Shown: positions 1 through 36,999, numbered from the stretch's first letter. The stretch: DNA of 64,000 nucleotides from Candidatus Omnitrophota bacterium (GCA_030698625.1 JAUYMS010000030.1:148016-212015), one strand, 5' to 3'. The notes: generated by a model from the letters alone, not told the origin. Numbers and translations: made by a program.

Positions 1-660
1 CGTGAAGCCCTCGAGAAGATCAAGCGGCAGAAATTCGACGTCATTTTCCTCGATATCGATATGCCCGGCATGAGCGGTCTTGAGGTGGCAAGCCGCCTGG
101 TCGGTTTTGATGACCCGCCCCTTGTCGTTTTCGCGACCGCCTACCATCAGTACGCCGTTGAAGCCTTCAACGCCAATGCCATGGACTATGTCTTAAAGCC
201 TTACGACCCCATACGCCTCAAGCAGACCTTCGAACGCATCAAGGAGCGACTGGCCGGCCAGGGGAGTTCCAAGCAGCAGCTTCAGGGCCTCGAGGATCAC
301 CTCATTAAGAAGGGGGTGCTCAAGAAGCTCGTCGGCCATACGCGGAACACCAAGGACAGGGTGGTCATTGACCCGGGTGAGGTCTTCTATTTTGATGTCA
401 AATACTCCGAGGTCATCGCCCATTTGGGAGATCGACAGCTCATTATAAACATTACACTTAAGGAAATTATCGACCGTCTGGACCCCGCCCAGTTTGCTCA
501 GACCCATAAATCCTATCTCGTCAATATCGATAAAATCGAGAAGGTTTCCCCCATGTTCAGCGGTAACTTCGAGATAGCCCTGAAAGCCCCTCTAGGGGGC
601 AATATTCCTCTCTCCAGGCGCTATGCCAAGCACCTCAAAAGCCTCCTAGGCGACTGGTAG
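1..660 (+). CDS. LytTR-family response regulator; C-terminal part of receiver domain plus LytTR DNA-binding domain; 5' end cut by window edge
   Basis: Frame 1 is open from nt 1. The receiver-domain tail (FDVIFLDIDMPGMSGLEV...VVFATAY...DYVLKP) is followed by a LytTR-type domain (VFYFDVKYSEVIAHLGDRQLIINITLKEI...THKSYLVNIDKIEKV). Confidence 0.85.
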   Translation, partial: REALEKIKRQKFDVIFLDIDMPGMSGLEVASRLVGFDDPPLVVFATAYHQYAVEAFNANAMDYVLKPYDPIRLKQTFERIKERLAGQGSSKQQLQGLEDHLIKKGVLKKLVGHTRNTKDRVVIDPGEVFYFDVKYSEVIAHLGDRQLIINITLKEIIDRLDPAQFAQTHKSYLVNIDKIEKVSPMFSGNFEIALKAPLGGNIPLSRRYAKHLKSLLGDW

Positions 661-867
661 ACAAAGGGGTCAAGTCTCGACTTGACTACATGTCTAGCAC
701 CTCGCCCGAATTAGCCTCTTATACGTAGCTCAAGTACGAGACATTGACCCCTGGTTGCTGACCGCTTAGCCCGTCTAATCGACCGCCTAGCGTCTTTCCA
801 TCGTGATTTTCACGCTCTCCGAGTATGGTCTCAATAAGAGCAGAACGACCTTACAGGGGGAAAGACG

Positions 868-1029
868 ATGCTAAACGAATACAGCAAGAAACAGAAGGCG
901 TGGAAGGGAAAGCTCGAAGGGGTCTCCAAGCAGTTCGGGGTTAACGAGACCTTGATGGACAAGCTTTGCTTCTATTACATCATGCGTTCGATTTCAGAGC
1001 AGATTCGCGGGGAGAACCATGCTGCCTGA
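868..1029 (+). CDS. small hypothetical protein (53 aa), possibly translationally coupled to the giant gene
   Basis: ATG preceded by a GGGGGAAAG Shine-Dalgarno-like sequence. The stop overlaps the giant-ORF ATG (1019) by 11 nt in another frame. Shorter than the ORF-track cutoff; no recognisable domain. Confidence 0.3.
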   Translation: MLNEYSKKQKAWKGKLEGVSKQFGVNETLMDKLCFYYIMRSISEQIRGENHAA

Positions 1030-4000
1030 AACTGCCAATAAATTTATCGCCTCGCTGATCATCGTCACCATGACGTTGACTCAAGCCGTCCCTTACGGAT
1101 TTGCCTCCGATCTTACTTTGTCGAAGACCGGGGAGTACATCCAAGAGACGGACGCGACGGCACCCGGCACACAGGTAGAAAGCGAAGATCTTCCGCGCGA
1201 GTATGAGGAATTTTTTGATGACAGTTTTAGTCCTCTTTCAGCGTCGGAGTCGGAAGAGAATGTCGAAACAGTTGAAGTTACAGAAGAGGTTAAAGAGGAA
1301 CTTGAGAAACAAGATCTGGATAAGATCGAGCCCGTGGTCCTAGAACTGCCTTCGGGGCCGATCGATTGGGATCTCGCCGAAGACCACAAGCTTCTAAAGG
1401 AAGCACGCGAGCGGTACGGCGACCGGGTTGTTTCCGGAACGGGGCACTATCCGGACCGCAATGCCTTGGATTACCCGACCACTTATAAGTTCTATGATAA
1501 AGACGGCAATCTCATTGCAACCTATGTCGGCGGAGGGCTCGGAGGCGCGGACGTATGGACCGAAGAACCTAAGCCGCTCGACGAGGCGCTTAAGGAATAC
1601 TACGAAAAGCTTTCGGCGTTTGACGATTTCGCCAGCGGCATTGCCCTTAAGGGGATTACGTTAGACGAGATCAAAAAGCTGCGCAACATTCAAGACCGCC
1701 TAAAGGAAGTTCTCGAAGCCATTATCGCGCTCGGTGAAGCGCCCGGCGAAAACCTTCTTAAAGGGTTCCAGGACCGCGTTGTCATGCTTGATGACATTTT
1801 GTCGTCGCGGCCCTTGCTTATAAAGATGGGCGATAAAACCCTCGAGGTGAATATCTCTGAAGCCATGCGCGCGATACACGAACAGTACAGGCGTCTCGGC
1901 CTTGTCACAACTGACGATTTTTACCGGCTGCCGGGCATAGACGCTGCCGACCTCGCAGGTCATGAGACCTTTGCTCAGTATCTCGATTCCCGTCAAGTCG
2001 GTATCACGACCGTCATCTCCGTATTCAAGGGTCTTTCCTCCTACGGCAATCTGACGCTCATTCACGGACTCTTCGTGAAGTACATCGAACAATACGGCAA
2101 CATCATGATGGGCGATGACCGCGATGCCGACGGCTACCCGGAAGTCAATTACACGGTTTTCGCCCGGTTGGTAAACGGAACTGAGATCGCCCGTCGCGAA
2201 GCCTTGGCGACCGTGCATAGAATGATTGCCGAACGGGGTATTAAGGTTCCCTCAGGCGGTACGGAATCGTTTGAGGAGCTGCTTGAGCTCGTCAAGAGCA
2301 TCGACAAGTTGGATGAAGATTTGAAAAAGGTGCTGGGGGATTATATTGATTCTCTCGATCTGGAGGAAGTCTTCAAGCGCGATGTTCAAAACGAAATCAA
2401 TAACGTGATTCGCAACACATACGATAATTTTATCCGTAACTTCCGCGATATGTTTAAAGACCACAATACTCCTCCGGGAGGACTCCTGCGTGAGCACGAT
2501 ATTCGCTTCCCTTCAGGGAATACGCTTTCGCTTGACGACATAGTGGATTTTATCAGTAAGTCCGAGAACCTGCACCAGGTCATGCTGGCGGCTAACGCCG
2601 ATTTCAAAGAAGGGCTCGGTGATTCGAATACCGGTCTTACGAATACGATCCGCCGACTATTAGACAGCAAGATCAGTACAATCATGCACGATTTGATGAG
2701 TCATGTTACCAACACCATCAATGCGCGGCAGACCTTCATCGATGACATCGTCACCGATCATGAGTGGTCGCATCCGCTCCATATCGAAGGGGCGCTCACA
2801 TTTGAGGACTTCTCGAATTATACCGTTGAGCTCCTCAGTCTGCAGCAGTCGATGAAGGACAGGCTTGCGGCGTCGGAAGAGCGCGTGAACGCCGCCAGCA
2901 GTCAATTCCTGAACACGGTTCGCAACGCACTTACCTATAAGATCTCGGGCTTCATGACCCGTACTAAGAATGAAATCAAGATGACTATCCGGACGCGGGA
3001 CACGGAGCTTAACACCATCATTGCCGAGCACAATATTAATTTTTCGAGCGCCCAGCCCGTTACGTTTGAGTGGCTATTAAATCGCGTGAACGGGGTCGAT
3101 GACCTCGGCCGGGAACTCTCGGAAAAACTTCAGGCCTTTAAGGGAAAAATGGGTGAGATCACTAACGACGACGGCCTGGTTAATCTGATTTTGACAGAAA
3201 TGCGGTATCAGGTTGACGGCGCCACGATATGGGAAAATAACAGCCGTATTGTCTTTCCCGGCTTGTACAAGACGATTCGTGAAGGATTAGAGCGTGTTAT
3301 CACAAACGTGAATGTCGAGTTTGACATCGAAGGTCTCGGTAAAGTGGTGATCACGGCCGGTGATTTGAATGCGCTGACCAACGGTCTTCCTTCGGATATC
3401 GCCTCACTCATGCGTTTTCCGGGAATCATGGAAAAGCTGACCGAAGAGCAATTGCATGAACTTGAGAAGCGGGACCGCGAAGTCTTAAGGCGCAATTGCT
3501 GTTTCGATGGCCGCAATGCACAGGCGGACGCAGGCAACCTCTCAATTTTTGGACGCCGGATTCAGCTGACCGGGCTCTTTCTTCAAGCCGCCGGTGCTGA
3601 AGTGGTCAATGCGGACGGGTATGTGGACCGCGATGCCTATCGCCGCGCCCTGTTGATGAACGACCGCCTGGAAGCCCTTTACAACGCCGCCCAGCTTGTC
3701 ATTGAAGGGTCCGTTATGCGAGTCGATGAGCTCGTGCGGGACATCTCCAAGGGAATATCCCTCGAGACTTATGAGCGTTTGTACCAGCTGATCAAAGATA
3801 CCAACGGTGCGGTCACGGATATTATCAAGCTCGCCTTGGACGGTGTTATTCATTCGGCTAGGAGCATGGTGTTGGATATGCTGCAAGACGATTTTAATGT
3901 CCTGCTGCGTAAGATCGACGGCATTTTAGCCGAAGCCCCGATCCAGATCCGGATCGGCGACAAGGTGTACGTCGTCGACAGCCGCAAGGTGCGTGACGCC

Positions 4001-7000
4001 ATGCACCAGTTGCTCAATATGCTGACTGTTCGAAATGATAATAATTACAGTAAAGAACAATACGCGCGTCTGACCGGTGTTACTCAGGAGTTATTGCAGA
4101 CCTTGCAGACAGATTACGAATTGAACGCCTCCCGCCAAATTCGGATCGACTGGCGTGAACCGACTTACAGCCGCGACATGAATCAGACGATTTCCCTGAA
4201 CGAATTTTTGTATCGCATGATTCCCGTAATCCTCAAGAGTTTTGGCGAAGTCATCCTCGGCGAGGATGGGGAAGTCTCTTATGTGAACATTGAAGACCAA
4301 CTGCTCGAAGGAGCCAATGCCCCTGTCGAAAAAGGGCAGGACCTGCAAACCGTCTTCGGCGATCTGGTGGCGAAAAGGTTTAAGGACGCCAAAGAGAAGC
4401 TGCATAGCTTTGATTTCAGCAAGTGGGAAGACCGGATCGCCGCAGAGAAGCTCATCTACGGCCTCGTCTACGGACTCGAAAAAGAAATCGCCTATCTCCT
4501 GCAGGTCCTGAACGCGAGTGAGATAGGCGTCCTGAATGCGGAACTCAACAAGTACAACTACTACAGCTGGAACAGGAGGGGGGAGCGTTTTAACGATACG
4601 GTGTTCGGGCGCCCCTCGTTTTACGCCCTTTGGGAGTATTTCGTGTACCGGATGCTTGTGGCGCCGAGAACGGCCCTGCTGCCCGACGGCAGGGTATTGA
4701 AGATCGATGTCCAGAGTATTCGCTCGATCCCCGGCTTTCCGTACCAGCGTTCATTTGATGAGGAGCTCTTCCCCGGTATTGTCGACGGAGACTTTGACGG
4801 CGCCGAGAAACTGCAATATCTCCATAGCGGCCCGTTTCAGCTGATGAAAGATGCCGACAGATCGCTGGAAGATTTTCTGCAGGCCCAGACGGAACGCGAC
4901 AAGTTCATCATTAACCTGGTTCTGCGCCACTACGCGCACTTGGACGAGATTCCGGAGATCTATAAGGGCCGGCTCTTTGTCGCAAACGAAGACGGAACGG
5001 TTTCTCTCAATACCGAGATCTTCCGCCGCTTGATCAAGGGAATCGACCTGCTTCATCAGCAAATCCTCAAGCAGGTCAAGGAATGGACGGCCGAAGCGCT
5101 TGAAAGTTTACAGGCCCTGAAGAAAGTGCCGATGACGGTAGCTTCCATCAAAGAACTCTATGCCGCTGTGATGGCACATCGAACCAAGATTATGGAATAC
5201 CTGAACGGTCTGACCCGTAAGCATGAAAAGGAAGATGTGATGGAGATGGAAGAGGATGTTACGGCTATTTATAAGGCAATGGTTGACGAAATGATTCACT
5301 ACATGCGCGACAACGACCTCGTGACCCAAGCGGGCGGCCGCGAAGTCGTGATTCCTTACGGGCAACTGACGCAGCTGCTTATGAAGGCGCTCGAAGAGAA
5401 ATTCCCCGGCGAAGATATCTCGGCCCATCACTTCGCGTCTTTTTACGGGATCTCCATTGAGGACCTGCGCCCCGCGAACAAGTTGGAAGAATTCCTGGGG
5501 ATGCAGATCATCGCATTGCCGCGGAACTCACAGTATGTTGAGATCATCTCCAAGCTTTCTGAAATCGGTGTGATGGAAGTGCTTGAGAAAGCCATGGCGG
5601 CTTACGGTGAGATGGCCCTGCGTTCAGACGGCACCTTAGACCCCGAAAAACTGGTCGAGTTACTTCTCGACGGTAACCTCGCGGTGAAACGAGCCAACGA
5701 GCGCGCCGATGAGATCGCTCGCAAGGTCCGTGAAGGCCTGGCCGCGATCGAGAAGCCGCTGACCAATCAGTCGTTCGCCGAAATGGCGACGTTGATCGAC
5801 AATATGAAGATTGAATTCATAAATGTCATGAACGATATGGTTTCCGGATTTGAGCGTGAAATGTTTGATGCCGTACAGTCGCACGTGAGCAGTCTCTATC
5901 AGGAAACGATTAAGCTCAGAATCGATATGCTCACGCAGAATCCGATTCAGATCACCGGGCATGACGGCAGTCAGTTCACGCTCGACCTTCGAGGCATTGA
6001 GTCCGAAGTGGTCGGCCGCATTATGGCATTGCTGTTACAGTTGCCCGAGGAAAAGAAAATATTTGACCTGATTTCCTCGCCGATTTACCGGTCAGAGACT
6101 GAGCCTAGAGTCTTCACATCCAAGGTGAGTTTTGCGAATACCACCATGATGGTAGAGCCGGCTATGGCGCTAGAGGAGAAGGCAGTTATTGATACCGGGT
6201 ATCTCATTCGCCTGCCGATTTACCGTCCTTGGCAGCCTTGGTATCCGTTACCGGGGAATGTTGATCCCAAGGATACCCTCACACAATTTGGTTTCTACCA
6301 ATTGCTGGTGCGTCTGGCCGAGAAGTTCGGGTCTTTTGCTACCGACGAGAACGGTGACTTTTCGCTCGGCAACTTTCTTGCCGAATTGGAAAAGACAGAT
6401 TTAGACCGCTTTAACCGCAGAATCAAAATGTTAGAAGACGAAGTCACTGCCGAGCTCGCTTCGCGCGTGCCGGAAGACGCTAACGACCCGGTGTCTCTCG
6501 GGGCCGTAATCGGTATGCAGGATTACCTCGATAAGTCCCGCGAGCGTTTTCTGAAAGCCTTGGGCACGATGCTTAACGACGATCAGAACAAGAGTAACGC
6601 AATTAGCAGCGCCAATGCCGCGTGGACTCGCGTGATGAATAAGTATGAAGCGCTTATCCTTGAGCGCAAGGTCACCATGCAGATCCATGGCCGCACCGTC
6701 ACTTTTGACGGTAAGGTGCTGCATGAGATCCTGGTCGAAGAGTACAACCAGCACCCCGATTTCATCGATTCTTATAAAGAGGGTGGCGAGACGAATTCGG
6801 CCTACTCAAATTACCGCACACTCTATCGTGACTACGATAACAAGCGTTATTATGACAATGACTCAAACAGTTTTCGCGATGACGCCGAAGATCTGGAGAA
6901 GAAAAATCTCCGCTATCCTTTTGACCTCGGTGAGCTTAAACGCATTCCGGCCATCTCTCACAAGGATCTCGTCGGCTTGGATGTGAATTCCAAGAATCAG

Positions 7001-16000: not shown

Positions 16001-19000
16001 GGCGGTGGCGTGGGTCTTCCGCTCGGCCCCTGCACGGGCGGGGATGTCGCGTTAGCGTCCATTACCCGCACCGGCGAGAACGGTGAATTCCTGTCGGCGA
16101 TCGCCGGAATCAAGAGCGCCGAAGGATTCGGCTTTGACTGGGCGGCAACGGTTGAGATTCATGAAGGCAGAAGTGCCCAGCTCGGATTCAACGTTTACGA
16201 AGAGCTGTTTGATAAGGTGCGGCAGTTTGAAACTATCAACGAGCGTGAGATTGCCCGCCTCGTCGAGATCCTCAAAGAAGGCATTCTGAAGAATACATTC
16301 TCCATGCATGAACAGGACATCGAAAAGGCGATCAAAGACGGTCTGATAACCTTTGTAGTCGATCCGAAAACGAATACGGCGAAGATCCATCTTGACCCGA
16401 AAGTACGCACGAAGCAGTGGGCGGCCGCTCTGTTTGATCCCTTAAAGGCCATGCGCCATGACTGGGACGGCGAACTGCCGGCGGTTGTGGAAGTGAAGTT
16501 CGGCAATGGCCCGCTTATTCTGGCCGGCTGCGCCTGGGGTTTTATCTGTGACATTCCTCAGCCGAAGCATATCGTGGAAGCGACGTTTATCGTCGGCGCC
16601 AAGGATGAGAACGGTCTTTTCGTCGAGCATTTACCGACGGGTTATCTCGTGAAATACATGCCCGAAGTTGAAGATGGGGAAATACGTATCATCGGCGTAT
16701 CCGGGGACAACCGGCCGCACTCGGTTGAGGTCTATCAAGCGACGCCGTATAGGGAATGTGCCCAATTCAATCCGTTTGGCTGCGGCGCACTTTTGCAGAC
16801 GATCGCCTATACCTATGGGGAAGACGGAAGAACGGCGACAGCCCTGATTGAGACTCTCATGGAGGATGGCACGGTTAGCCGCCGTGATGAAGTTACTCTC
16901 ACCAGGCTTGGCGACGGCCTCTGGTATGTGGATACCGTCAATAATAGCAAGTTCGTCTATCTGATCAGTATGGTTGTCTATGACTGCATCGAGGGTGTCG
17001 AGTGCATTCCTCCGCCGCCGATGGTGCACCTGGCCTTCATTCAGGGCAAGGACCGCCACGGAAACGATCTCTACAGCATTAACGATATCAAAACTTCCGA
17101 TACTGCCGGCTATCGCTACGAAGCAACGGTTTATACACAGGGCGAAAGAATTAAGACCGTTGTTAAATATAATAATTATCAGGAACTATTTGATGCGGCG
17201 CTGGCTCTCACGCATGTGGTCTCAGTCCATGCCCTTGATTTTACCGAGCCCCTGGAAGTACGCCTCCTTGATGACGGCAGCTATGAATCGATCTATAAGG
17301 GAGCTACTTATCAGAGCGATGCCGACGGCAAGGTCGAAATTCCCGGCACCCTCGAGGACTTAATGTTCCATTTCAACGATGACGGAACTCTCGAGAGTAT
17401 GACCTTCACGAACGGCAATAACACCATGACGGTCACCTTTGAAGAAGACGGCGCCGGGAACCTTCGCGTCAAGACCGAAACCGCCGAAGGCGGCTTCGGC
17501 TGGACCAAGACTTTTGACTACGCTGAAAAGTCTGTGACATGGGAATTTAGTTTTGGGATTCAAAAGGAACTTTTCTATGACTTGCCACAGGCGAATTTAA
17601 GGAATAACGGCAGCGGCCTGAGCTATGAGGGAAATGTATTCGTCGAGCTCATGTCAGGGATGGCGCCGTCAGTAGGGCGGCCCTACTTTTGGCACAAGAC
17701 TCTGGATGGCAAATACTACCGCTTTATCCAGATCGGCGATGCCTTTGACCTGAATGACGTGGATTGGCTCCAGGTCCAAGAAAGAAACACCGATGCCCTG
17801 CGCGCGCTGTTGCGCGACGACATTATGCTCCTGGGTCACGATCAGCTCGAGACCGCAGAAGAAGACGACCTGGTCTTTACGGCCGACCTCAGATTAGGGG
17901 TCAACGGTTTTCCGGTTAAGGTGAAATTTCCCGACGGCACCGAAAAGACCATGCAGGCCGAAGTATCAGCCGACCGCAAGATAGTCTTGACGGTCGCGAT
18001 GCCTGATGGCACGAAGCGCACCTATGTAAGCGAAATTACAGCTGAAGGCAAAATCCTTCCGCTGCGATTGAAGCCCTCCTTTGAAGTTGTCCACGAGATG
18101 GAGTTTGGTGCAGGGCGTGTGATTTTGGAAGAGGGAACGGACAGTGCCGGTAATGCGCAGTTGGAAGCGCTGGTGCAGGCGCGGGACGGAGACGGTTGGA
18201 AGACCTTAAAGAAGTTTCGGATCAAAAAGGACACTGTCAAAAGAGGACACTCGCAAGTGACGCGGCAGCCATGCAGCGACTCTAAGCCATGTGACACCGG
18301 CGGCCATCCGACGCTTTCCATGGAAACCCTCGACGGCGAGCAACTCCTTTTTATCGACAATTCTGTCAGCGGACCCGGCTATACGATCGCTCATGACGGC
18401 ACGCCAGATCAACCCGTTTCAGTTACAGAAAGCTATGCCCTGCGTCGCAGTCTCCGGGAAGGTGGGGAGGGCGAGTGGCAGATCATTCCGACCTACAAAT
18501 ATAGAACATGGGCTCTGGTGCAAACCGAAGTGACCACCTATGACGACTACGGTCAACGCTCGAGTGTTGCGACAGAGAGACGCGGACCACACGGGACCGT
18601 GATCGTAGTGACCGAGGAATTCTACCCCATACCGCCGTGGAGTGACATGGCACAGCGGCCTACAACATACTTCCTGGAAATATACGGTACGGCCGGCGTG
18701 ATCTTGGGAAAAACGGAAATCGGCCAGGAGTTTAGGAGCGAAGCAGATGCCGGGCTCCTGACCGAAGTCCTGGGGATTGACCCCGAAGGACAAGCCGTCC
18801 GAGTTGAGATCAAAGACGATGAGGTTATTCTATTTATCACCAACAGCAAGGGCCAGCCAGTGCTGATCAACCGCACGGGCTTTGGCGTCTTTACGATGAA
18901 CTATGGAACCGATATGGCTGAAGTGCGCATCAAGCACGAGGACGGCACGATTGAGATTCGCCGTTACAAGTGCGTGCCGGGCTGGAATCCGGGCCGCGAA

Positions 19001-20209
19001 CCGATCTGGGTTCCGATCGAGATCGAACCGATTGAACTGCCCGATCTGCCGACCCCTGATCCCCGCAAGCCGGTGCCCGGGTTCGAAGAATGGGTCTTAG
19101 GTCTTCACGTTGAAACGGAATTTATCTACCCCGACGGCACGAGCGAGATCGTCACGGTTGTGCAACCTAAGGTTGAGCCTGTAGTCGTCGAAGGCGCTGA
19201 TTTCGAAGCGGCAGCGTTGACGACGATGAAGGGTTTTGACGGCATCGACACGAGCGGTCTTAATACGCGCGGCGAGGGTCACGGCCCCGGTTTCATTACG
19301 ATGCGTAAAGGTCATGAACAGGGCGCTTATGGTTTCAATTACTTTGTCGGCACATCAAAAGGGGCCCAGGTCAAGGCGCAGGCGATGACGAGCGGTGAGC
19401 CTATGACGCTCGGCTCCCAGACGGTCATCGCGATGAAGGGGAACCGCCGCGACCGCGGTGCGATCAATGCAAGAGTCCGGCTTTATGATGCCTCCGGCAA
19501 CGAGGTAGTCTTCCTTTTTAAGCTTAGGGAGATCATGCAAAACTTCATCATGAATCTGAATCAGTCAAACTTCGATGCCTCACGGGTCATCGGGATGAGT
19601 ATTGAAATCGATCAGGAAACGACCAACCTCACAAAGGGCAGCGTGGACTTTTACCTCGGGCAGGTTGATACCGAGGTCCCGCTTGAAGTCGGTAAGAGTA
19701 CCGCCTCCGACAGCGTGAACCGTCTTATTGCTCAGCACCAGGCCCGCGTCCTCGCCGGCAGTAAGTACATGACACTGTTCGAGCCTGAGGAACGCGAGGG
19801 CGTGAAGGGTTATGCGGCACGCTATGATATTCGCCACGGTCGTAATGATGAGGCCGCTCTGGTTGTCGCCGCTGAAGAAGACGAGCCGATAATGTTCGGC
19901 GGCGATACGCTGGATTTCTGGATGCAGGCCGCAGAGACTGAGAAAGACACCGTGGCCTTCGAAAACCTGAAACTCGAGCTCACGATCATGGCCGACGACG
20001 GACAGATGGTGACCACTGAAATTTATGTGACCAAGCAGGCACAACTCTATCAGATCGACCTCTCCAAACTGGACCCCAACTTTAAGGCCAAGAAGATTAA
20101 AGACATCGTCATCAAGGCCAGCCGTAAGGCCGAAAACGCCGTACAGCGCGCGCAATTCAGCTTTTGGCTCAAGGCCCTGGCCGACAAACTGCACGTCCCT
20201 ACCGCCTAA
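1019..20209 (+). CDS. giant secreted multidomain protein (6,396 aa). It has an N-terminal signal peptide, an acidic region, at least 6 repeated alpha-helical modules, YD/Rhs-like beta-repeat stretches, recurring Cys-pair loops (CFGEECP, CIPGEECN, CAFGEECA, CIEGVECI) and two dockerin-type Ca-binding repeat modules.
   Basis: Single uninterrupted 19.2-kb ORF. Signal peptide MLPETANKFIASLIIVTMTLTQAVPYGFA. Dockerin-like DMNQDGVVDQAD...DLNFDGVVDAKD (about nt 12830-12960) and DVNQDGVVDYND...DFDQDGKVTKKD (about nt 14980-15140). YD-like motifs (TEYDTEGQVIATTTFEY, SVTDYDGKGNLVAVTRFSY). Repeated modules ...YEELFDKVRQFE...IEVDLK...RFKDGKMG... Antisense and off-frame ORFs inside it are judged spurious. 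Confidence 0.85.
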   Translation: MLPETANKFIASLIIVTMTLTQAVPYGFASDLTLSKTGEYIQETDATAPGTQVESEDLPREYEEFFDDSFSPLSASESEENVETVEVTEEVKEELEKQDLDKIEPVVLELPSGPIDWDLAEDHKLLKEARERYGDRVVSGTGHYPDRNALDYPTTYKFYDKDGNLIATYVGGGLGGADVWTEEPKPLDEALKEYYEKLSAFDDFASGIALKGITLDEIKKLRNIQDRLKEVLEAIIALGEAPGENLLKGFQDRVVMLDDILSSRPLLIKMGDKTLEVNISEAMRAIHEQYRRLGLVTTDDFYRLPGIDAADLAGHETFAQYLDSRQVGITTVISVFKGLSSYGNLTLIHGLFVKYIEQYGNIMMGDDRDADGYPEVNYTVFARLVNGTEIARREALATVHRMIAERGIKVPSGGTESFEELLELVKSIDKLDEDLKKVLGDYIDSLDLEEVFKRDVQNEINNVIRNTYDNFIRNFRDMFKDHNTPPGGLLREHDIRFPSGNTLSLDDIVDFISKSENLHQVMLAANADFKEGLGDSNTGLTNTIRRLLDSKISTIMHDLMSHVTNTINARQTFIDDIVTDHEWSHPLHIEGALTFEDFSNYTVELLSLQQSMKDRLAASEERVNAASSQFLNTVRNALTYKISGFMTRTKNEIKMTIRTRDTELNTIIAEHNINFSSAQPVTFEWLLNRVNGVDDLGRELSEKLQAFKGKMGEITNDDGLVNLILTEMRYQVDGATIWENNSRIVFPGLYKTIREGLERVITNVNVEFDIEGLGKVVITAGDLNALTNGLPSDIASLMRFPGIMEKLTEEQLHELEKRDREVLRRNCCFDGRNAQADAGNLSIFGRRIQLTGLFLQAAGAEVVNADGYVDRDAYRRALLMNDRLEALYNAAQLVIEGSVMRVDELVRDISKGISLETYERLYQLIKDTNGAVTDIIKLALDGVIHSARSMVLDMLQDDFNVLLRKIDGILAEAPIQIRIGDKVYVVDSRKVRDAMHQLLNMLTVRNDNNYSKEQYARLTGVTQELLQTLQTDYELNASRQIRIDWREPTYSRDMNQTISLNEFLYRMIPVILKSFGEVILGEDGEVSYVNIEDQLLEGANAPVEKGQDLQTVFGDLVAKRFKDAKEKLHSFDFSKWEDRIAAEKLIYGLVYGLEKEIAYLLQVLNASEIGVLNAELNKYNYYSWNRRGERFNDTVFGRPSFYALWEYFVYRMLVAPRTALLPDGRVLKIDVQSIRSIPGFPYQRSFDEELFPGIVDGDFDGAEKLQYLHSGPFQLMKDADRSLEDFLQAQTERDKFIINLVLRHYAHLDEIPEIYKGRLFVANEDGTVSLNTEIFRRLIKGIDLLHQQILKQVKEWTAEALESLQALKKVPMTVASIKELYAAVMAHRTKIMEYLNGLTRKHEKEDVMEMEEDVTAIYKAMVDEMIHYMRDNDLVTQAGGREVVIPYGQLTQLLMKALEEKFPGEDISAHHFASFYGISIEDLRPANKLEEFLGMQIIALPRNSQYVEIISKLSEIGVMEVLEKAMAAYGEMALRSDGTLDPEKLVELLLDGNLAVKRANERADEIARKVREGLAAIEKPLTNQSFAEMATLIDNMKIEFINVMNDMVSGFEREMFDAVQSHVSSLYQETIKLRIDMLTQNPIQITGHDGSQFTLDLRGIESEVVGRIMALLLQLPEEKKIFDLISSPIYRSETEPRVFTSKVSFANTTMMVEPAMALEEKAVIDTGYLIRLPIYRPWQPWYPLPGNVDPKDTLTQFGFYQLLVRLAEKFGSFATDENGDFSLGNFLAELEKTDLDRFNRRIKMLEDEVTAELASRVPEDANDPVSLGAVIGMQDYLDKSRERFLKALGTMLNDDQNKSNAISSANAAWTRVMNKYEALILERKVTMQIHGRTVTFDGKVLHEILVEEYNQHPDFIDSYKEGGETNSAYSNYRTLYRDYDNKRYYDNDSNSFRDDAEDLEKKNLRYPFDLGELKRIPAISHKDLVGLDVNSKNQVKLSFLADAKELLKGRLNMRVFAPGAAIQTVGVATSSMKSSSVMAMAEMSVRYEDVSYDKVLLGNYIEIDERRVKYVPRRYLDVSKRDAIFRMLPAMIMDHWRSLVVNGVVDADKFRELLRDPEGMKQREKQLVLDSLKSQIEAFRKALVSGDPDMPAIGLTGIVERDGNGYSLVVYEPRLYKYLLEHTDADTGRLKADAVTDELLALTSLTKDQLIERPINEWRVKLPHVSYRLPQDKIYPIYYEEDVMLSSLKAESDSSILRFPSPRWYDLVGKTINIMKANVSFQVNDKGVVEGVIHEAVGVTPLKHAEQAKELLLNSSQARLAKQLRDAYIEQFVTGDNPDLPKGLKAAIAAYLKVGIEDIVSIAAEARDFIRCLGGNCPTWSKTLSVWAVVDGVKKHFAGVATGGWWGFILEPIREPVYRTLDDAVDEMIADERRVDFMPERAPSVFLIETDPLIDGRALEAIADAAKVAVEQITAVDFKRHENRIVCKGPGCDVWSGDLRVTVKQGDNPEKHFEGEIVKIFEPSKLNGYRQYRVTLEEYVPVHEHLSRIDLSAWWGDIHYIDNKQAVIYGQYGRNDENKNGHFAAIVDPRTGEILRYLKDRAGWLTGAVSENKRYAAFFENDNFNINVLIYDLHTGTSTSYRIENYYTWGAGTKKDGYLDFLVSDSGKIHVLHRGQMPDRNTYGPHEVRVYGSDGKIESRVAFEGDANDAYLKLVMRGNWIYAIGNRKANASSSHPGDLILIQRIKVKGNDLEMGEASRVNAGIEAWELDIAEGSRWITVYDFNKPRFTFVYFGKDPSEDKLADIPPVNTAGGSQQARNYSAYDPKGILLVFTRFYYMNEKERDRLSVYDTKTGTSKSYDFRTIMQYLGIGGPDDGFVKNFGFSLNLKTRRFVFSAGVSAPDFYRHRAGENYLYEGSLDDLYALLEIFDEGRRYLELPDGSKQWFNEDGRLIKKIDKDGNVFEVDWKTRTATMTSVYDGSVTTWKNVIADKGYEDDGRYSIGVWYFKNKKDYPDHYFKFGGEFVSRVTTAKNAAYFFDGRSWNGDLGNVIKIQDADGTLELNWNEKTATRTDNDGNVTKFTDISVMQTQGSECASGSGDQLTFCPTWIADYMIQPGYQGIGSYSTRVEKDGITKTGTFQLIGRKMDSAYPKTIVVNGKTVIVDMEALVEALKAAKNKARFDSGVLCFEGCGDAQDLFLLQGVKDVFAIEELNRFEHNPRPRFLIVGPTYSRQGWIDFATELLRRYDEKGLDIFNAINRLMITDVWPPRPFHSQVNNDKVMDIVLRGIEQADPRVARMRKVILSDLAKSYGLKKVEQWYAEGLVRIKVDMKSMTAHVAFDKTLQEQRISGPLVDPLGEFIVPAAMEFNFKEVPDSRINWFTVADPVPAVLELGGIALDVKKVTGTALMAEKSLTIQPAMRLMLTGAAIVYQKSALQLNSFRQEFKVGRIEVSYDTNTWNNNLPSLVNMYDESGNRVKVINMNGFQGSYECAFGEECAFAQVDIWPPSASTPRPLIYYPGNDDITHRFVQFRHGDFDKGIESTLEYQGKDSVTLAVINTFQYRDDGSLETITRTGPDGELSKIELDTTTGDVAARPAPGSRVALITRADGRQRNIFFKNWEELIDRTRQFESEMEDPRAAQVRKLVIAGLDSYGMTREEIEQWLEAGLLKIEVDLKKNQARAVFSEKLQGRRFENAKVHPLGAFIVPAAIQFTFKEEEPFFLSIAPVVSRDGEKEAVDVEYPLDPGLIKPLLPFRKQLILASADIQYEAGGVYGRMSVDYSDTGRLASVKIYSAGELVKEVKYQWFEPCNRWGMCLESIWNDSATVYYPQSTDITRRRVDWNSGGLMTLMIPSGAITGVQEFGLDESGKEVRLFTNEYKYGGNNVLYEEDVDYEPIGSVEDYELTKVVTPYLSKIVRRDAKNNVISTIDMRPFLEKPEFDMNQDGVVDQADAQFMRLALEMAEGKATGDLNFDGVVDAKDLRLFYIGRYAVIRLADGWQKGVFYKDYEDLLDQARKFEASNDEALKSRLAKYVTGNMATEMGLTDEALAELIESIEVDLKNLTVSVRFKDGKMGRDRLIAPMNNGDLPETVVYQLFQNGQSWGFKEAVWEWPVTYRRTYWWTYEDRNVAKVLYENDTVSKIEWRIRSKVTSAGMPCFGEECPAPVVKTYDNLYQVDSYTHHDAQIEITQEYTGTKHPDAEVVAIEFIGSERFKPAYRKDVLTLRKLRDGQYHIERVTEYDTEGQVIATTTFEYATLGAASTLSRVIRWDAAERLHTSSAVITGGNTARITVGGQHFYVTVTFDSYETLLNHMKALEVHPNAVLTEAVKKAALVQLSDKMALSMAHLEAMIEEIEVTQGYEVIVRFKEGNMGDDRKFRMLEDASLPAAARVSFGQEIRIGDDGEVLGLAAHTVRMEWDLLNGHNLRGSMSIDPQGRITHIGWNQTAPVTDWCKGPICPAYMPGPVTVAYFIETYLYGDDGIKIVRRDFEVGPNGEISKRIAAEDTYDTIILGDVTSVIELKRMGDKRFHVSSVTDYDGKGNLVAVTRFSYLTATTLIACIPGEECNTVSTVSVGLAFLRRKNAAGELLSEIRFNFTAGSKVATIKRADGEELRVDYDSFRGLLDAAAVFENQVNEQIALAKELAEALKRAMSDNGNWDVNQDGVVDYNDVSYVWTGYETVLRVLDQLPEPILTALDFDQDGKVTKKDHAEVRRRILESIWREHDIREAKVLLERMLQFDFGMMRQTVLDLMAEGKIKFEVDVKNMRASIWIDPGVRRDGILIDGANLTNLLGSRALPQTINVKLGRDTELVALIAICGVDVSGEKICGAPDRAPAKLHLRSAEFEAADNRFGRNKNLFIKLDYRKTYREKADDRFVLFLDGDNLLKGVEIYEGNPNIVCITTPCPTGKLIQGISYAYENNIAVSATIDYLHAGVNQPTHREVTFKALGQSQGGSDHWARRGNYIDTVADYIDGQLIVKSKFDYLQTAVLCPASVAPDGGGVGLPLGPCTGGDVALASITRTGENGEFLSAIAGIKSAEGFGFDWAATVEIHEGRSAQLGFNVYEELFDKVRQFETINEREIARLVEILKEGILKNTFSMHEQDIEKAIKDGLITFVVDPKTNTAKIHLDPKVRTKQWAAALFDPLKAMRHDWDGELPAVVEVKFGNGPLILAGCAWGFICDIPQPKHIVEATFIVGAKDENGLFVEHLPTGYLVKYMPEVEDGEIRIIGVSGDNRPHSVEVYQATPYRECAQFNPFGCGALLQTIAYTYGEDGRTATALIETLMEDGTVSRRDEVTLTRLGDGLWYVDTVNNSKFVYLISMVVYDCIEGVECIPPPPMVHLAFIQGKDRHGNDLYSINDIKTSDTAGYRYEATVYTQGERIKTVVKYNNYQELFDAALALTHVVSVHALDFTEPLEVRLLDDGSYESIYKGATYQSDADGKVEIPGTLEDLMFHFNDDGTLESMTFTNGNNTMTVTFEEDGAGNLRVKTETAEGGFGWTKTFDYAEKSVTWEFSFGIQKELFYDLPQANLRNNGSGLSYEGNVFVELMSGMAPSVGRPYFWHKTLDGKYYRFIQIGDAFDLNDVDWLQVQERNTDALRALLRDDIMLLGHDQLETAEEDDLVFTADLRLGVNGFPVKVKFPDGTEKTMQAEVSADRKIVLTVAMPDGTKRTYVSEITAEGKILPLRLKPSFEVVHEMEFGAGRVILEEGTDSAGNAQLEALVQARDGDGWKTLKKFRIKKDTVKRGHSQVTRQPCSDSKPCDTGGHPTLSMETLDGEQLLFIDNSVSGPGYTIAHDGTPDQPVSVTESYALRRSLREGGEGEWQIIPTYKYRTWALVQTEVTTYDDYGQRSSVATERRGPHGTVIVVTEEFYPIPPWSDMAQRPTTYFLEIYGTAGVILGKTEIGQEFRSEADAGLLTEVLGIDPEGQAVRVEIKDDEVILFITNSKGQPVLINRTGFGVFTMNYGTDMAEVRIKHEDGTIEIRRYKCVPGWNPGREPIWVPIEIEPIELPDLPTPDPRKPVPGFEEWVLGLHVETEFIYPDGTSEIVTVVQPKVEPVVVEGADFEAAALTTMKGFDGIDTSGLNTRGEGHGPGFITMRKGHEQGAYGFNYFVGTSKGAQVKAQAMTSGEPMTLGSQTVIAMKGNRRDRGAINARVRLYDASGNEVVFLFKLREIMQNFIMNLNQSNFDASRVIGMSIEIDQETTNLTKGSVDFYLGQVDTEVPLEVGKSTASDSVNRLIAQHQARVLAGSKYMTLFEPEEREGVKGYAARYDIRHGRNDEAALVVAAEEDEPIMFGGDTLDFWMQAAETEKDTVAFENLKLELTIMADDGQMVTTEIYVTKQAQLYQIDLSKLDPNFKAKKIKDIVIKASRKAENAVQRAQFSFWLKALADKLHVPTA

Positions 20210-20335
20210 AAAACGTCTCAAACTTAGCCCAATTCCCCAATCTTACTAAATCCGTTTGAAAAGATGGTAATCAGCACGTATACTTGATAAAGAAGACAAG
20301 ATATTAATCAATAACTAGCATTAGAGCGCACGCAA

Positions 20336-23300: not shown

Positions 23301-24010
23301 CACCGACGTCAACGCCGTGGGAAACGCCGACACCTACACCGTGGGAAGAAATACCGACACCTACGCCTTTCGAAACGCCGACCCCGACGCCGGATTACAA
23401 TGACGGTACGTGGGAAATAGACCAATGTACCTCCGGCGCACTGCTGTGGAATGATGACGGCTCCTATACCGACACGACTGAGTGCACCTACAAGAAAAAG
23501 AAAGCCCGTGAGGAGATAACACCGACACCCACACCGAACGACGGTGATTTAATCTGCTCGCCCGGCATGATCGATCCTGACGGGACTGACCACACGACCT
23601 GCACCCGCGCGATGCCGAGCATTGCAAGCGTTCTGAAGATGCCTCATCGTATCGCGAATATTTTTGCGACTCTTCGCACGTTGAGCCCGCACAGCATTAT
23701 GGAAGGCATGGGGCATCAGATTGCCAGGGAGCAGCGAATGCAGCAAATGTACGAGAATCAGGGACGCGCCGATAAATCCGAAGAAGACGACGAAAAGCCT
23801 CCTATGCATTTCGCAGCCTACGCCCCGGTAATGCCCGTTATTTCACCGGTACAGCCCAGAGTCGAGCCGGCCTACCATGAGTATCGCCGCGCCTTTCATA
23901 GCCTGCGGTCTGCGATGACCCGATTCAACTCAGCCTGGAGCATGCTGAGCTCTGCCATGCAGATGAGCCTACGCTACCAGCGCGACCTCGAGAAACACTC
24001 CGAAAGCTAA
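20336..24010 (+). CDS. large secreted protein (1,224 aa) with Pro/Thr-rich linkers and a dockerin-type double Ca-binding repeat
   Basis: Signal peptide [29 protein letters not shown]. (PEPTPMPTP)n linker at about 21640-21830 and [18 protein letters not shown] at about 23290-23400. Dockerin-like [14 protein letters not shown]...[12 protein letters not shown] at about 23090-23230. Sits 127 nt downstream of the giant ORF on the same strand. Confidence 0.8.
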
Positions 24011-24059
24011 CCTCTCCTTACTGTTGTGGTAGAATTGCGTCACAAAACAGAGGGAAGCA

Positions 24060-24902
24060 ATGGCTGCCAAAAAATTATCAGAACTCATCAGTGAGCACGA
24101 GACCGCGAAGGGCCGCTGGGTACTAACCGGGGATCACGAGGTTTATTACCGTGAAAGACGCGGTAAAAAGGAGGCCGTGATTAAGGGGGCGCTCGTGGCG
24201 GCACAGCCTGATGCGCTTGTGATTTCGGTGACGGTGCGTGAGAGTGAGAAGCGCACGGTAACCGGGCTTGTGAATCTCGCAGGGAAGTGGGAGCTCGACT
24301 CTAAAAACCGGATTACGTTTTTGGTGAGGCGCGGTTCTGCGCGCGGTGACAAGCTTCGGTTTCAGGGCGCGTGGGAGGTGAATAAGCACCACGAGGTTAT
24401 CTATACCTATGAAGCCCGTGCGGCCCGGCATCAACTTGTATTCAAGGGGCATTGGGATATTACGGCCAAGAACCGGCTGACCTATGTTTTGGGCACGGGT
24501 TCTGAGGCCGCCTTCCGTTTCCGCGGCACGTTTCAGAGCGCAAGCCTCGGCGCCAAAGCCGGCGAAATACGTTACCAGGCGGGCATTGAGTTCCAATCGA
24601 AGCGGGGGGCGTGGAAGCGGATCAGCAGGACGATTATACTTTTTGGGAAGTGGAAATTATCACGCGCCCTTGCCCTGGATTTCGAGATTACATATGCGGG
24701 CGGCCGCAGGTCTAGTATCGCGGTGGGGGCTGTCCTTGCCGACAAATTTACGGTTCGTCTCCTGAGCAAAAGCGGTGCCCCGCTCGGCCTGGAACTTACG
24801 CTCACGAAAGATTTTTTCAGAGGCCGCGCCAAGGCCTTTTCGCGTTTTTCGCGAACTGCGACTGCCCAGGCCCTCGAGGCCGGGGTTACGATTCCGTGGT
24901 AG
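24060..24902 (+). CDS. hypothetical protein (280 aa) with five Gly-Trp beta-hairpin-like repeats; last gene of the giant-protein operon
   Basis: ORF 50 nt after the upstream stop. Repeats GRWVLTGDHEVYYRE / GKWELDSKNRITFLVRR / GAWEVNKHHEVIYTYE / GHWDITAKNRLTYVLGT / GKWKLSRALALDFEITY. No signal peptide; no known family recognised. Confidence 0.6.
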   Translation: MAAKKLSELISEHETAKGRWVLTGDHEVYYRERRGKKEAVIKGALVAAQPDALVISVTVRESEKRTVTGLVNLAGKWELDSKNRITFLVRRGSARGDKLRFQGAWEVNKHHEVIYTYEARAARHQLVFKGHWDITAKNRLTYVLGTGSEAAFRFRGTFQSASLGAKAGEIRYQAGIEFQSKRGAWKRISRTIILFGKWKLSRALALDFEITYAGGRRSSIAVGAVLADKFTVRLLSKSGAPLGLELTLTKDFFRGRAKAFSRFSRTATAQALEAGVTIPW

Positions 24903-24917
24903 GCTACCCCCCTAAGA

Positions 24918-24945
24918 TTGACATTATTCGTCCCTCCTCTATAAT
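24918..24945 (+). promoter_or_regulatory. sigma70-type promoter (TTGACA-N16-TATAAT) for tRNA-Phe
   Basis: Perfect consensus -35 and -10 hexamers with a 16-nt spacer, ending 20 nt upstream of the mature tRNA 5' end. Confidence 0.6.
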
Positions 24946-24965: not shown

Positions 24966-25038
24966 GGGCAGGTAGCTCAGTCGGTAGAGCAAGGGACTGA
25001 AAATCCCTGTGTCGGGGGTTCAATTCCCTCCCTGCCCA
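24966..25038 (+). tRNA. tRNA-Phe(GAA): tRNA-Phe (anticodon GAA); CCA not encoded
   Basis: Cloverleaf fits: acceptor GGGCAGG/CCTGCCC, D-arm GCTC-AGTCGGTA-GAGC, anticodon stem AGGGA/TCCCT with loop CTGAAAA, T-arm GGGGG-TTCAATT-CCCTC, discriminator A. Confidence 0.9.
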
Positions 25039-25081: not shown

Positions 25082-26050
25082 ATGAAGTATTCGATCGGCA
25101 TTGACATCGGCGGTACCAAAATCGCCATCGCTCTCGGCAACAGCCGGGGCAGGATCCTCGCACGCCGCCTCCTGACAACCCGAACCGGCGCCGAGACCCG
25201 CGCCTGCATTCAAGAGATTTCAGAGCACATCAAAAATTTGATCAGCAAATGCCCCGGCGGTAAAAGAAAAATTACCGGCATCGGTGTGGGCGTGCCCGGT
25301 GCGGTCAACTCGAAGACCGGCGTTGTGCCGCGCTCACCCCACATGAAAGGTTGGCAGGGGATCAAGCTCGCAAAGATTCTCAAAGCGAATTCGGGCCTGC
25401 CTGTGCTTCTCGGTAACGATGCCAACGCCGCGGCTCTGGCCGAGATGCATTTTGGTTTGGGCAAAAACACAAAAGACTTTATTTATATCACGGTGAGTAC
25501 GGGCGTGGGCGGCGGCCTGGTGGTGAATGGGCGTCTCGTGGAAGGCGCGAATTATGTCGGCGGTGAGATAGGCCACATGACAGTCGTGCGCGGCGGTAAC
25601 CTTTGCAATTGCGGCAAGCGCGGTTGTCTTGAAGCCTATGCCTCAGGCACGGCCGTGGCACGCTATGTCGAGCGCGCCGTGCGGGCGGGGAGGCGGTCCG
25701 TTCTTGCCGCGCAAGTAAAACGCCGCGAACCTTTAGCCGCCCGCAACGTGGGTAAGGCCATCAGGCTCCATAACGACCGCCTCGCCAGAGAGTCTTATCG
25801 TGTTGCCGGCGAGTACCTCGGCCTCGGCCTCGCCAATCTCCTTAATATATTGAACCCCTCAGTCGTGAGCCTCGGCGGAGGCGTCTGGAAATCCGCGCCG
25901 CCGGAATTCGGCAAGGCCATGCGCGCCAGCTGCAAACGCGAAGCCTGGCCCGAAGCCTATCGCAGTGTCCGCATCCTGCACTCTAAGTTGGGCGCCCATG
26001 TCGGCGACCTCGGCGCCATTGCCCTCGGGTTTCAAGCCGCAAATGCCTGA
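25082..26050 (+). CDS. ROK-family sugar kinase (glucokinase-like)
   Basis: N-terminal GIDIGGTKIAIAL ATP-binding motif and the ROK zinc motif GHMTVVRGGNLCNCGKRGCLEAYASG. Confidence 0.85.
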   Translation: MKYSIGIDIGGTKIAIALGNSRGRILARRLLTTRTGAETRACIQEISEHIKNLISKCPGGKRKITGIGVGVPGAVNSKTGVVPRSPHMKGWQGIKLAKILKANSGLPVLLGNDANAAALAEMHFGLGKNTKDFIYITVSTGVGGGLVVNGRLVEGANYVGGEIGHMTVVRGGNLCNCGKRGCLEAYASGTAVARYVERAVRAGRRSVLAAQVKRREPLAARNVGKAIRLHNDRLARESYRVAGEYLGLGLANLLNILNPSVVSLGGGVWKSAPPEFGKAMRASCKREAWPEAYRSVRILHSKLGAHVGDLGAIALGFQAANA

Positions 26051-26972: not shown

Positions 26973-27162
26973 TGTGGGCCGGTATCTCAGGCCTGTCCCT
27001 GTGGGGACTGTCCCCAATATTCAAATGGTCTTTACGCTAACTAGCGTATATCAACGCGAGGCTTGGCGGATAAGCGGAGAAAAGTCATAGGAGTTATACT
27101 CACTTATACCAAATGTATGATATAAGTATATATAACTAGATACAACTCAAAAGGAGCTCACT

Positions 27163-36651: not shown

Positions 36652-36999
36652 ATGGAATTCGAAACACTGACAGAGAAAGCAACCCTAAGCGAACTGGGAC
36701 AAAGAATAGCTTGCCACCGTCTCAACAAAAATATGACTCAGAGTGCACTTGCTATCGAGGCTGGGGTCTCCAAGCCGACAATTCAGCGCGTTGAAAGTGG
36801 CGCCTCCACTCAAACTTCAAACTTAATCCGCATTTTACGCGCGCTCAAATTACTCGGCAATGTGGATGCTTTAGTCCCGAAGCCGCCTATCAGCCCTGTT
36901 CAGCAGTTAAAGTTGCAGGGAAAGCTCAGACAACGCGCATCCTCAAAAAAGGAAAAGAAAAGAACTGATGGTAGTTGGTCATGGGGTGAGGAGACGTGA
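36652..36999 (+). CDS. hipB: XRE-family HTH transcriptional regulator, HipB-like antitoxin
   Basis: HTH motif LNKNMTQSALAIEAGVSKPTIQRVESG. The stop overlaps the GTG start of the downstream HipA-like gene by 4 nt (GTGA). A low-GC promoter region lies at 36500-36650. Confidence 0.75.
   Translation: MEFETLTEKATLSELGQRIACHRLNKNMTQSALAIEAGVSKPTIQRVESGASTQTSNLIRILRALKLLGNVDALVPKPPISPVQQLKLQGKLRQRASSKKEKKRTDGSWSWGEET

Follow-up and report, generated by a model that had tools for sequence, protein, structure and literature searches.

The first 24,902 nucleotides (nt) of a 64,000-nt stretch of the genome of Candidatus Omnitrophota bacterium (GCA_030698625.1, JAUYMS010000030.1:148016-212015), the whole of which is hereafter called the window, contain five co-directional open reading frames (ORFs), encoding the C-terminal part of a LytTR-type response regulator, a leader peptide of 53 amino acids (aa), a giant secreted protein, and two proteins called here P2 and P3 (Table 1). 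All five were recovered by ORF calling at the positions given in a preliminary description of this DNA, and the 53-aa ORF runs over the ATG of the giant gene by 11 nt, as had been claimed. The gaps between the three large genes are short, as described, but measure 126 and 49 nt rather than 127 and 50 nt. The regulator reported to lie just upstream is present (Pfam LytTR, 4e-23, in a frame open to position 1), but the window holds only the 3' part of its gene; the Response_reg match begins at model position 52, the receiver domain being cut by the window edge. A chance origin of the 19-kb ORF is impossible, and the same DNA occurs in Logan assemblies of run SRR13727534.

The region preceding the window was obtained from a Logan contig, L100, retrieved by exact-sequence look-up of the micro-ORF. 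This contig is 100 % identical to window positions 1-3944 and reaches 3.3 kb further upstream. It carries, in this order, the genes for a 456-aa secreted dockerin protein (L100 233-1603; Dockerin_1 26 bits, above the Pfam cut-off), a 524-aa LytS-type kinase (L100 1608..3182) and the complete regulator of 258 codons. A search for the cognate histidine kinase just upstream of the window had been proposed, and the LytS-type kinase directly precedes the regulator. The gene for the dockerin protein ends 5 nt before the histidine kinase gene, apparently in the same operon. The three genes appear to form one operon, most of which lies upstream of the window and which ends at window position 660, where it is followed by a strong hairpin. 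The hairpin, just past the regulator stop codon, has a folding energy of -18.9 kcal/mol (z -4.95; 0/200 shuffles equally stable) and no U-tail. A core of about 20 nt of this hairpin, GGGGTCAAGTCTCGACTT, recurs inverted at L100 1-30, at the opposite extremity of this operon and precisely at the break of the Logan contig; the pair may be a repeat element or palindromes bounding the operon.

The Pfam domains of the kinase are 5TM-5TMR_LYT (PF07694), His_kinase (PF06580) and HATPase_c (PF02518), with only about 38 residues between the end of the 5TM domain at 277 and the start of the His_kinase domain at 315. It also carries an extra N-terminal extra-membrane segment of about 100 aa, which is probably periplasmic. 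Kinases with the same domains occur at two other loci, L009 and L011, that contain relatives of the giant gene, called family genes below. At L009 a LytS-type kinase and a LytTR regulator lie directly before the family gene encoding P0244, with a second family gene after it, and at L011 the kinase-regulator pair is divergent beside the gene encoding P0245. Kinase-regulator pairs adjoin family genes both in L009 and in the group L011/L093/L097. The window regulator is 62 % identical to the regulator of L009 and 51 % identical to that of L011, and on these identities the three are orthologous. In L011 and its relatives a different secreted protein, of 341-355 aa, stands in place of the 456-aa dockerin protein.

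When intergenic regions were scanned for direct repeats spaced 19-24 nt, a putative operator was found between the regulator and the micro-ORF. The preliminary description had proposed that the region 660-1018 be searched for LytTR direct repeats, and there is exactly one, with 8-bp units and a 13-bp spacer, situated 100 nt past the regulator end and 79 nt before the micro-ORF. The repeats, which have a 21-bp period, read ACCGCTTA-N13-ACCGCCTA in the window and ACCGCTTA-N13-ACCACTTA in L009. In L011 the repeat ACCGCCTA-N13-ACCGCTCA was found via a pattern search and a three-locus alignment, and a third unit, read by eye, lies 21 bp further on. The operators of L009 and L011 occupy the same place, 90-96 nt upstream of a leader ORF. 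With up to 2 mismatches and on both strands, the operator is the sole match in the 64-kb window (chance expectation 0.00 at up to 1 mismatch), and its pattern occurs once in L100. It was found in 0/90 other loci, 80 of them LytTR-regulator loci from other phyla, which served as a negative control and came from a contig scan with regulator alignment (among the matches listed, the regulators were 31-41 % identical and from other phyla). No second operator was found ahead of P2, P3 or the kinase operon.

The BtsR operator was reportedly described by Kraxenberger and co-workers in 2012 as a direct repeat ACC[G/A]CT[C/T]A with a 13-bp spacer; the second unit of the window operator deviates at one position from this strict consensus. 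The YehT-site oligonucleotide of E. coli yjiY contains CTGACCGCTTA, 13 nt and ACCACTCA in succession (PMC4847170), and the window operator has both CTGACCGCTTA and the 13-nt spacing in common with it. In both sequence and spacing the putative operator corresponds to the BtsR (YehT) site of E. coli.

A degenerate form of the operator pattern was also used for an unbiased scan of JGI metagenomes. This returned seven matches, namely six Omnitrophota family loci and one enterobacterial btsT promoter, which is the canonical BtsR target. A family gene lies downstream of the box in L096 (the L011 contig), in L099, where the order is box, 71-codon leader ORF and family gene, and in L095 and L098, where the box is followed by the gene for family member P0267 and no kinase-regulator pair lies within 5 kb. 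L093 and L097 are syntenic with L011, and their contigs end at the box. The box precedes relatives of the giant in three further Omnitrophota lineages. As a separate observation, positions 3878-4445 of L012, upstream of the family gene encoding P0300, apparently contain three copies of an element of about 45 nt (CTCGAGGCATGACACTTGCGCATTG..., read by eye). The same stretch contains a different 21-bp-spaced direct repeat, CCGTTTACCCCCC / CCTTTTACCCCCC, which could be another LytTR-type site.

In the three-locus promoter alignment a TTTCC(A/T)TCG block is conserved downstream of the box, and a candidate -10 hexamer, TATGGT, was read from the sequence at 824-829, giving a putative promoter. A consensus scan of the + strand of the 795-829 region found neither a canonical sigma-70 promoter nor a canonical -35 element, which is as expected for an activator-dependent promoter. 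The hairpin, the box, the conserved block and the lack of a canonical -35 together suggest that the giant gene is a target of the regulator and not a member of its operon, and point to transcription of the giant gene from a separate regulator-dependent promoter rather than by read-through. The five genes had been described as one operon-like unit. This view was abandoned: the hairpin, the operator and the probable promoter split the regulator from the micro-ORF and the giant gene, and P2 and P3 each have a promoter-like site ahead of them. Co-transcription of the regulator with the giant is improbable. Ahead of P3, which has a good Shine-Dalgarno (SD) sequence of its own, the site is an extended -10-like TGgTAGAAT at about 24027-24035, read by eye. 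No terminator-like hairpin was found in the giant-P2 gap or in the P2-P3 gap, and co-transcription of P2 with the giant is possible.

Table 1 Features of the five-gene block and of its downstream boundary, in window positions (HMM, hidden Markov model)
Feature	Coordinates	Strand	Basis or description
Regulator ORF	listed 61..660, frame open to 1	+	3' 219 codons of LytTR-type response regulator
Hairpin, possible transcript end or repeat element	655..700	+	RNA folding
BtsR/YehT-type LytTR operator, putative	761..789	+	direct repeat ACCGCTTA-N13-ACCGCCTA
Putative regulator-dependent promoter region	795..829	+	conserved TTTCC(A/T)TCG block and candidate -10; inferred
Leader micro-ORF, 53 codons	868..1029	+	ORF and SD GGGGGA
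Giant gene, 6396 aa	1019..20209	+	ORF
Giant: family-type N-terminus, aa 1-80	1019..1258	+	signal peptide end ...TLTQAVPYGFA|SD, acidic linker, EFFDDSFSPLS motif
Giant: helix-favouring region, aa ~120-2400 (~2,300 aa)	1376..8218	+	BLAST map and composition
Giant: beta-rich region with YD-repeat-like hairpins, about aa 2400-3240	8219..10735	+	largely unique to giant
Giant: six tandem divergent modules, ~300-440 aa each, aa 3240-5370	10736..17128	+	self-comparison, alignment A1, six HMM domains
Giant: dockerin module 1, aa 3938-3990, end of module 2	12830..12988	+	best Dockerin_1 stretch; loops DMNQDGVVDQAD / DLNFDGVVDAKD at aa 3938/3967
Giant: dockerin or EF-hand-like module 2, aa 4655-4716	14981..15166	+	Dockerin_1 and EF-hand; loops DVNQDGVVDYND / DFDQDGKVTKKD at aa 4655/4693
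Giant: C-terminal ~1000 aa, unique to giant	17129..20206	+	no family, Pfam or PDB relative found
Promoter-like TTGAAA-17-TATACT, giant-P2 gap	20256..20284	+	consensus match only
P2, 1224 aa	20336..24010	+	ORF
P2: weak dockerin, aa 920-968	23093-23239	+	2y3n_B match and loop pair
P3, 280 aa	24060..24902	+	ORF
Block boundary: perfect TTGACA-16-TATAAT promoter	24918-24945	+	promoter consensus scan
tRNA-Phe at block end	24966-25038	+	between P3 and ROK gene

The micro-ORF and the giant gene each have an SD-like G-run, and the micro-ORF was called as a gene in an independent Logan assembly. Leader ORFs coupled to a family gene occur in three lineages, with 53 codons in the window, 57 in L009 and 71 in L011 and L099. 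The junction with the following gene is an 11-nt overlap in the window, a stop codon 1 nt before the ATG in L009 and an ATGA overlap in L011 and L099. By a rough estimate, about 1-2 % of loci would have an ORF of this type by chance. The leader ORF is intact in the comparison of L011 with L099; it differs at only 29 sites, with a bias towards synonymous ones, the ratio of nonsynonymous to synonymous differences (pN/pS) being 0.31 in frame compared with 0.76 and 0.52 off frame. The leader ORF is probably translated and positionally conserved, and its role may be ribosome loading or coupling for the 19-kb message.

The giant protein starts with a signal peptide and has no further hydrophobic segment, no membrane anchor and 13 C-x(3-7)-C pairs. 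The signal peptide, the paired cysteines and the lack of a later hydrophobic segment suggest that it is exported and either soluble or surface-attached. No match besides dockerin/EF-hand was found in Pfam and NCBIfam, and no relative was found among PDB sequences with either half of the protein or with the module profile. A type I (RTX) or two-partner secretion (TPS) adhesin was ruled out, there being no RTX or TPS domain and an N-terminal Sec signal. The signal peptide ends in the pattern [ST]Q[VA]xPxG[FLW][AS], which is common to most full-length family members and to P2. About 40-50 residues past that end there is an FFxDSPLS-like motif, present in 33/66 N-termini compared with 12/250 interior control windows. 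The first 2,400 or so residues are 35-52 % identical (BLAST) to about 14 family members, for example P0305, P0253 and P0279; the region from about residue 120 is called helical on composition, a sequence-based prediction. The following beta-rich region (about aa 2400-3240) has few or no family matches, residues ~2600-3200 being unique to the giant. Its match to the TIGR01643 YD repeat amounts to 20 bits, and no single stretch passes. In each of the six tandem modules a helical hairpin leads into a beta-meander bearing a Cys pair. One module was modelled with AlphaFold at moderate confidence (predicted local distance difference test score, pLDDT, 73.6; predicted template modelling score, pTM, 0.65), and the model likewise comprises a helical hairpin and a long beta-meander.

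The module profile A1 was searched exhaustively against 1.84 billion representatives and found 57 proteins including the giant, 23 of them below 1e-30, with lengths of up to 4,434 aa and up to 8 copies of the module. By this profile the giant belongs to an unannotated family with 56 other sequence clusters, and the members with an organism name are all Omnitrophota. A word-indexed search with aa 3280-4300 of the giant gave no match, not even to the query itself, whereas the exhaustive profile search did find relatives; a search of genome contigs with aa 1-800 found no relatives. In six family members searched against Pfam, no known domain besides dockerin and EF-hand modules was found. Elsewhere in the window, at 39687-42875, a 1062-aa secreted protein with no Pfam match has an N-terminal layout (signal peptide, Pro/acidic linker, 'DFFSPQTLSSP') resembling that of the giant family; BLAST showed no similarity between this protein and the family, and its gene is not preceded by an operator.

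Dockerin modules had been ascribed to both large proteins. This holds for the giant, with a Pfam Dockerin_1 (PF00404) match of 3.2e-11 and 43.7 bits (cut-off 22.9) in two stretches, the second of which is, by alignment A1, an insertion within module 5. For P2 the assignment is only plausible: aa 915-965 match the solved dockerin 2y3n_B (E 9e-4) with a loop pair at aa 920/945, and the Pfam match, at 14.2 bits, is below the cut-off, as are the EF-hand matches. None of the scanned ORFs of the window encodes a cohesin-like partner, in agreement with the preliminary description. P2 has a signal peptide of the family type and Pro/Thr (PT) linkers, including the one noted earlier, at aa ~432-494. Its residues 179-403 are 31 % identical to residues 2273-2482 of family member P0278 (4e-13), and it has no module of the giant type. 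A whole-database search for P2 homologues was uninformative, its matches being dominated by the Pro/Thr linker. Family genes are often paired or clustered with dockerin-rich neighbours, as in L009, L011 and L012, and P2 is on that account plausibly a functional companion of the giant.

P3 contains the five G-x-W repeats described earlier (residues 18-20, 75-77, 103-105, 130-132 and 196-198) and no hydrophobic N-terminal segment, and is probably cytoplasmic. It is identical to a 'hypothetical protein' of a Candidatus Omnitrophota metagenome-assembled genome. Its model is all-beta (pLDDT 80.7). Fold matches in the PDB reached a TM-score of at most 0.16, a profile sequence search there gave nothing useful, and Pfam gave no match. 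Altogether 127 homologues were found, the named ones nearly all from Omnitrophota, and the G-x-W residues are nearly all invariant among 60 of them. The homologues make up a conserved family of all-beta proteins of about 285 aa with five invariant G-x-W repeats, often encoded beside glycosyltransferase, PMT_2 or Wzy genes. A function of P3 as chaperone for the giant, or as its secretion partner, had been proposed; P3 homologues were remote from family genes in 5/5 contexts, a P3 homologue occurs in 0/9 family loci and the family module in 0/6 P3 loci, so this proposal was given up. A role as an immunity or chaperone protein was likewise rejected, and a giant gene 5 kb from a P3 homologue in L003 proved unrelated to that of the window. 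The SNase gene downstream of P3 is syntenic with L005 and L006. That P3 shares this neighbour with two homologue loci suggests that it belongs to the flanking core neighbourhood, and P3 is adjacent to the giant yet outside the system. A terminator-like hairpin with a T-run lies at 24819-24849, still within the coding sequence of P3, near its 3' end and about 55 nt before the stop codon, in a part of P3 predicted to be disordered.

The block ends in a perfect sigma-70 promoter driving tRNA-Phe. The remaining genes of the window have ordinary Gram-negative functions (ROK kinase, transporters, tetratricopeptide repeat proteins, HipA, resistance-nodulation-division efflux pump, PEP-CTERM protein). 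At 25965-28341 a DUF1016-SNase nuclease gene lies beside one for an AAA/STAND-like ATPase, and a HipA toxin kinase gene is found at 36996-38297; these genes look like defence or toxin-antitoxin functions. A tRNA-Arg gene followed by one for an ice-binding-like protein with a PEP-CTERM anchor is found at 54164-55397. In L095 the box and family gene stand between a tRNA-Phe gene (9710-9781, - strand) just upstream and a 52 %-identical ROK gene just downstream, and in L010 a tRNA-Ala gene (15803-15875) comes after the family gene. The places where family genes lie seem to be variable spots flanked by tRNA genes.

Taken together, it is reasonably probable that the locus serves to express, under the control of a signal, a very large secreted protein of an uncultured member of the Omnitrophota. 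As judged from the arrangement of box, regulator and kinase, an environmental signal probably turns the giant gene on. The kinase would sense a signal, not necessarily pyruvate, and phosphorylate the regulator, which would bind both repeats, roughly -75 to -47 from the inferred start, and activate a weak promoter. Ribosomes ending the leader ORF would arrive on the ribosome-binding site and start codon of the giant, and the leader would in this way tie the translation of the 19-kb message to the transcription of that message. After export the giant would function beyond the cytoplasm as a long adhesin or scaffold, and the dockerins of the giant, P2 and the 456-aa protein would bind a partner. 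P2, likewise secreted and of the same kind, would be expressed by read-through, from a promoter of its own, or by both routes, and P3 would be an unrelated conserved gene that is next door by chance. A more specific version, held only tentatively, is that a BtsS/BtsR-like nutrient circuit was rewired in host-dependent Omnitrophota nanobacteria as an on-switch for giant dockerin proteins, the attachment or attack scaffold being deployed only on a host or prey signal and the leader being required for expression of the 19-kb gene.

Several observations weigh against a signal-controlled unit of this kind. The operator is present in L095 with no kinase-regulator pair within 5 kb; in L010 there is no such pair near the family gene, and in L012, where the upstream region is cut, none is visible. 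The regulator scores 174.9 bits against its best NCBIfam model, BtsR (NF008677), below the cut-off of 246, and the kinase matched no NCBIfam model and has no GAF domain at E <= 0.01. The promoter, its activation and any co-transcription of P2 are predictions from sequence. The leader ORFs are only 14-25 % identical across lineages, and P0300 and P0250 have, instead of a leader ORF, an in-frame Lys-rich N-terminal extension of 48 aa. RNA structure around the start of the giant gene is no stabler than in shuffles (z 0.15); the start site is not hidden by structure, and a coupling function is therefore not demanded by the sequence. An unmasking of a sequestered ribosome-binding site by the leader ORF was dropped for the same value. 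As regards the protein, the module fold has only weak matches in the PDB, the best at a TM-score of 0.36 to a 'porin-like' Bacteroides protein, followed by OspA, and the suggested functions in adhesion, as a scaffold or in host contact have no characterised homologue behind them. No secretion system was found in the 67 kb of the window and L100, and no cohesin in the scanned window ORFs, L100 or six family members.

The locus as a whole combines variants of already known kinds of system. The regulator, with receiver and LytTR domains and BtsR as its best NCBIfam model, and the kinase, with its 5TM-5TMR_LYT, His_kinase and HATPase_c domains, are like E. coli BtsS/BtsR, and the operator, like that of the E. 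coli btsT (yjiY) promoter, is a direct repeat ACC(G/A)C(T/C)(T/C)A with a 13-nt spacer. In E. coli BtsS/YpdA a GAF domain lies between the membrane domain and the kinase core. The kinase described here differs in having no GAF domain, an N-terminal extra-membrane segment of about 100 aa and no NCBIfam model, and pyruvate sensing is therefore not to be assumed. The target is also different, being a micro-ORF and a giant secreted protein rather than a CstA-family pyruvate transporter, and the kinase operon also encodes a secreted dockerin protein. Because the regulator is under the equivalog cut-off, the kinase is without GAF and the target differs, the system is not a strict member of the BtsS/BtsR type. 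As in the LytTR-regulated AgrA, ComE and AlgR/FimS loci, the putative promoter has a poor -35 and is immediately preceded by a pair of direct repeats of 21-bp period, in agreement with the general LytTR pattern of 9-11-nt repeats 11-13 nt apart (PMC4847170). Unlike the Agr/Com loci, the box is BtsR-like, there are no peptide-pheromone genes, and a single 19-kb target stands behind a coupled leader ORF.

Leaders of very large secreted proteins include the extended signal peptide region (ESPR) of autotransporters and two-partner secretion proteins, as well as translationally coupled upstream ORFs. Like the ESPR, the leader is a short coding stretch, rich in Lys/Gln, that directly precedes the signal peptide of a very large exported protein; it differs in showing no sequence similarity and in being usually a separate ORF in another frame (window, L009, L011). 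Omnitrophota dockerin-bearing giant proteins have been proposed to mediate attachment (10.1101/2023.11.21.568195), and the giant resembles these 'Dockerin-type giant proteins' (West-Roberts et al. 2023) and the dockerin-bearing class of Nielsen & Lui 2026 (10.64898/2026.06.07.730766) in being a long, mostly unannotated, secreted Omnitrophota protein with dockerin/EF-hand modules and repeated helix-plus-beta units. With 6396 aa it is five times below the 30,000-aa threshold of West-Roberts et al. (2023), and unlike their giants it has no TSP3, discoidin, C-terminal transmembrane, SecA-like or C39 domains. Its neighbourhood also differs from those they described, with no type II/IV secretion-like locus in the 3.3 kb upstream and no PilZ gene in the 44 kb downstream. 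Unlike Archaeovorin-type giants, it has no transmembrane segment and no SecA match. Neither paper mentions LytTR or two-component control, and the family, its link with a BtsR-type switch and the recurrent leader ORF are not described in either.

Among other explanations, a cellulosome-like assembly is unlikely, though more probable than the rest. Here the dockerins of the giant, P2 and the 456-aa protein would plug into a scaffoldin encoded elsewhere, and the complex would degrade or bind polysaccharide, for example of the host cell wall. Dockerin_1 matches above the Pfam cut-off in the giant and the 456-aa protein, and the weak one in P2, are consistent with this, as are relatives with up to 10 dockerin loops and strong Dockerin_1 matches, and the literature ties Omnitrophota dockerin-type giants to attachment and glycan processing. 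On the other hand, no cohesin (PF00963), glycoside hydrolase or carbohydrate-binding module was found in the scanned window ORFs or in six family members, and no cohesin was among the 50 listed fold matches of the module. Dockerin-like modules are, moreover, common outside cellulosomes.

It is considerably less probable that the neighbourhood is accidental, with the kinase-regulator pair controlling something else, the box non-functional or serving another regulator, and the five genes merely adjacent. Some family genes have no adjacent kinase-regulator pair, and the adjacency of P3 is indeed accidental, but the box is unique in 67 kb, its position is kept in four Omnitrophota lineages whose regulators have diverged to 50-62 % identity, and the unbiased motif scan returned family loci and btsT only. 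Least probable of all, if by little, is a polymorphic-toxin or RHS-like effector with a conserved delivery body (helical region and YD-like beta modules), a variable C-terminal payload and downstream accessory or immunity genes. In its favour, the giant is unique in its last ~1000 aa and otherwise shared with the family, YD repeats are weakly matched, single-layer beta sheets and, weakly, TcdB2-TccC3 occur among the fold matches of the module, and the family sits at variable, tRNA-flanked spots. Against it, neither RHS_repeat nor an RHS core gave a significant match, known toxin domains were not found, the Tc toxin match has a TM-score of 0.12, and no small immunity-like gene follows the giant, P2 being a secreted protein of 1224 aa and P3 a conserved protein from unrelated contexts.

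A signal-controlled expression unit for the giant would bear on when and why proteins of this kind, which are widely reported in Omnitrophota, are made. A sensor kinase, a regulator and a defined, putative 29-bp operator lie before the giant gene, and all three recur in several lineages. The module, signal peptide and N-terminal motif of the family may be used to annotate 'dark' giant proteins, and a misassignment has been removed in that the G-x-W protein P3 is no partner of the giant. Since the operator agrees with the BtsR site of E. coli, work on binding, reporters and signal screening would be possible without culturing the organism; if the proposed control is true, E. coli could serve as a host in which to rebuild the switch and look for its signal.

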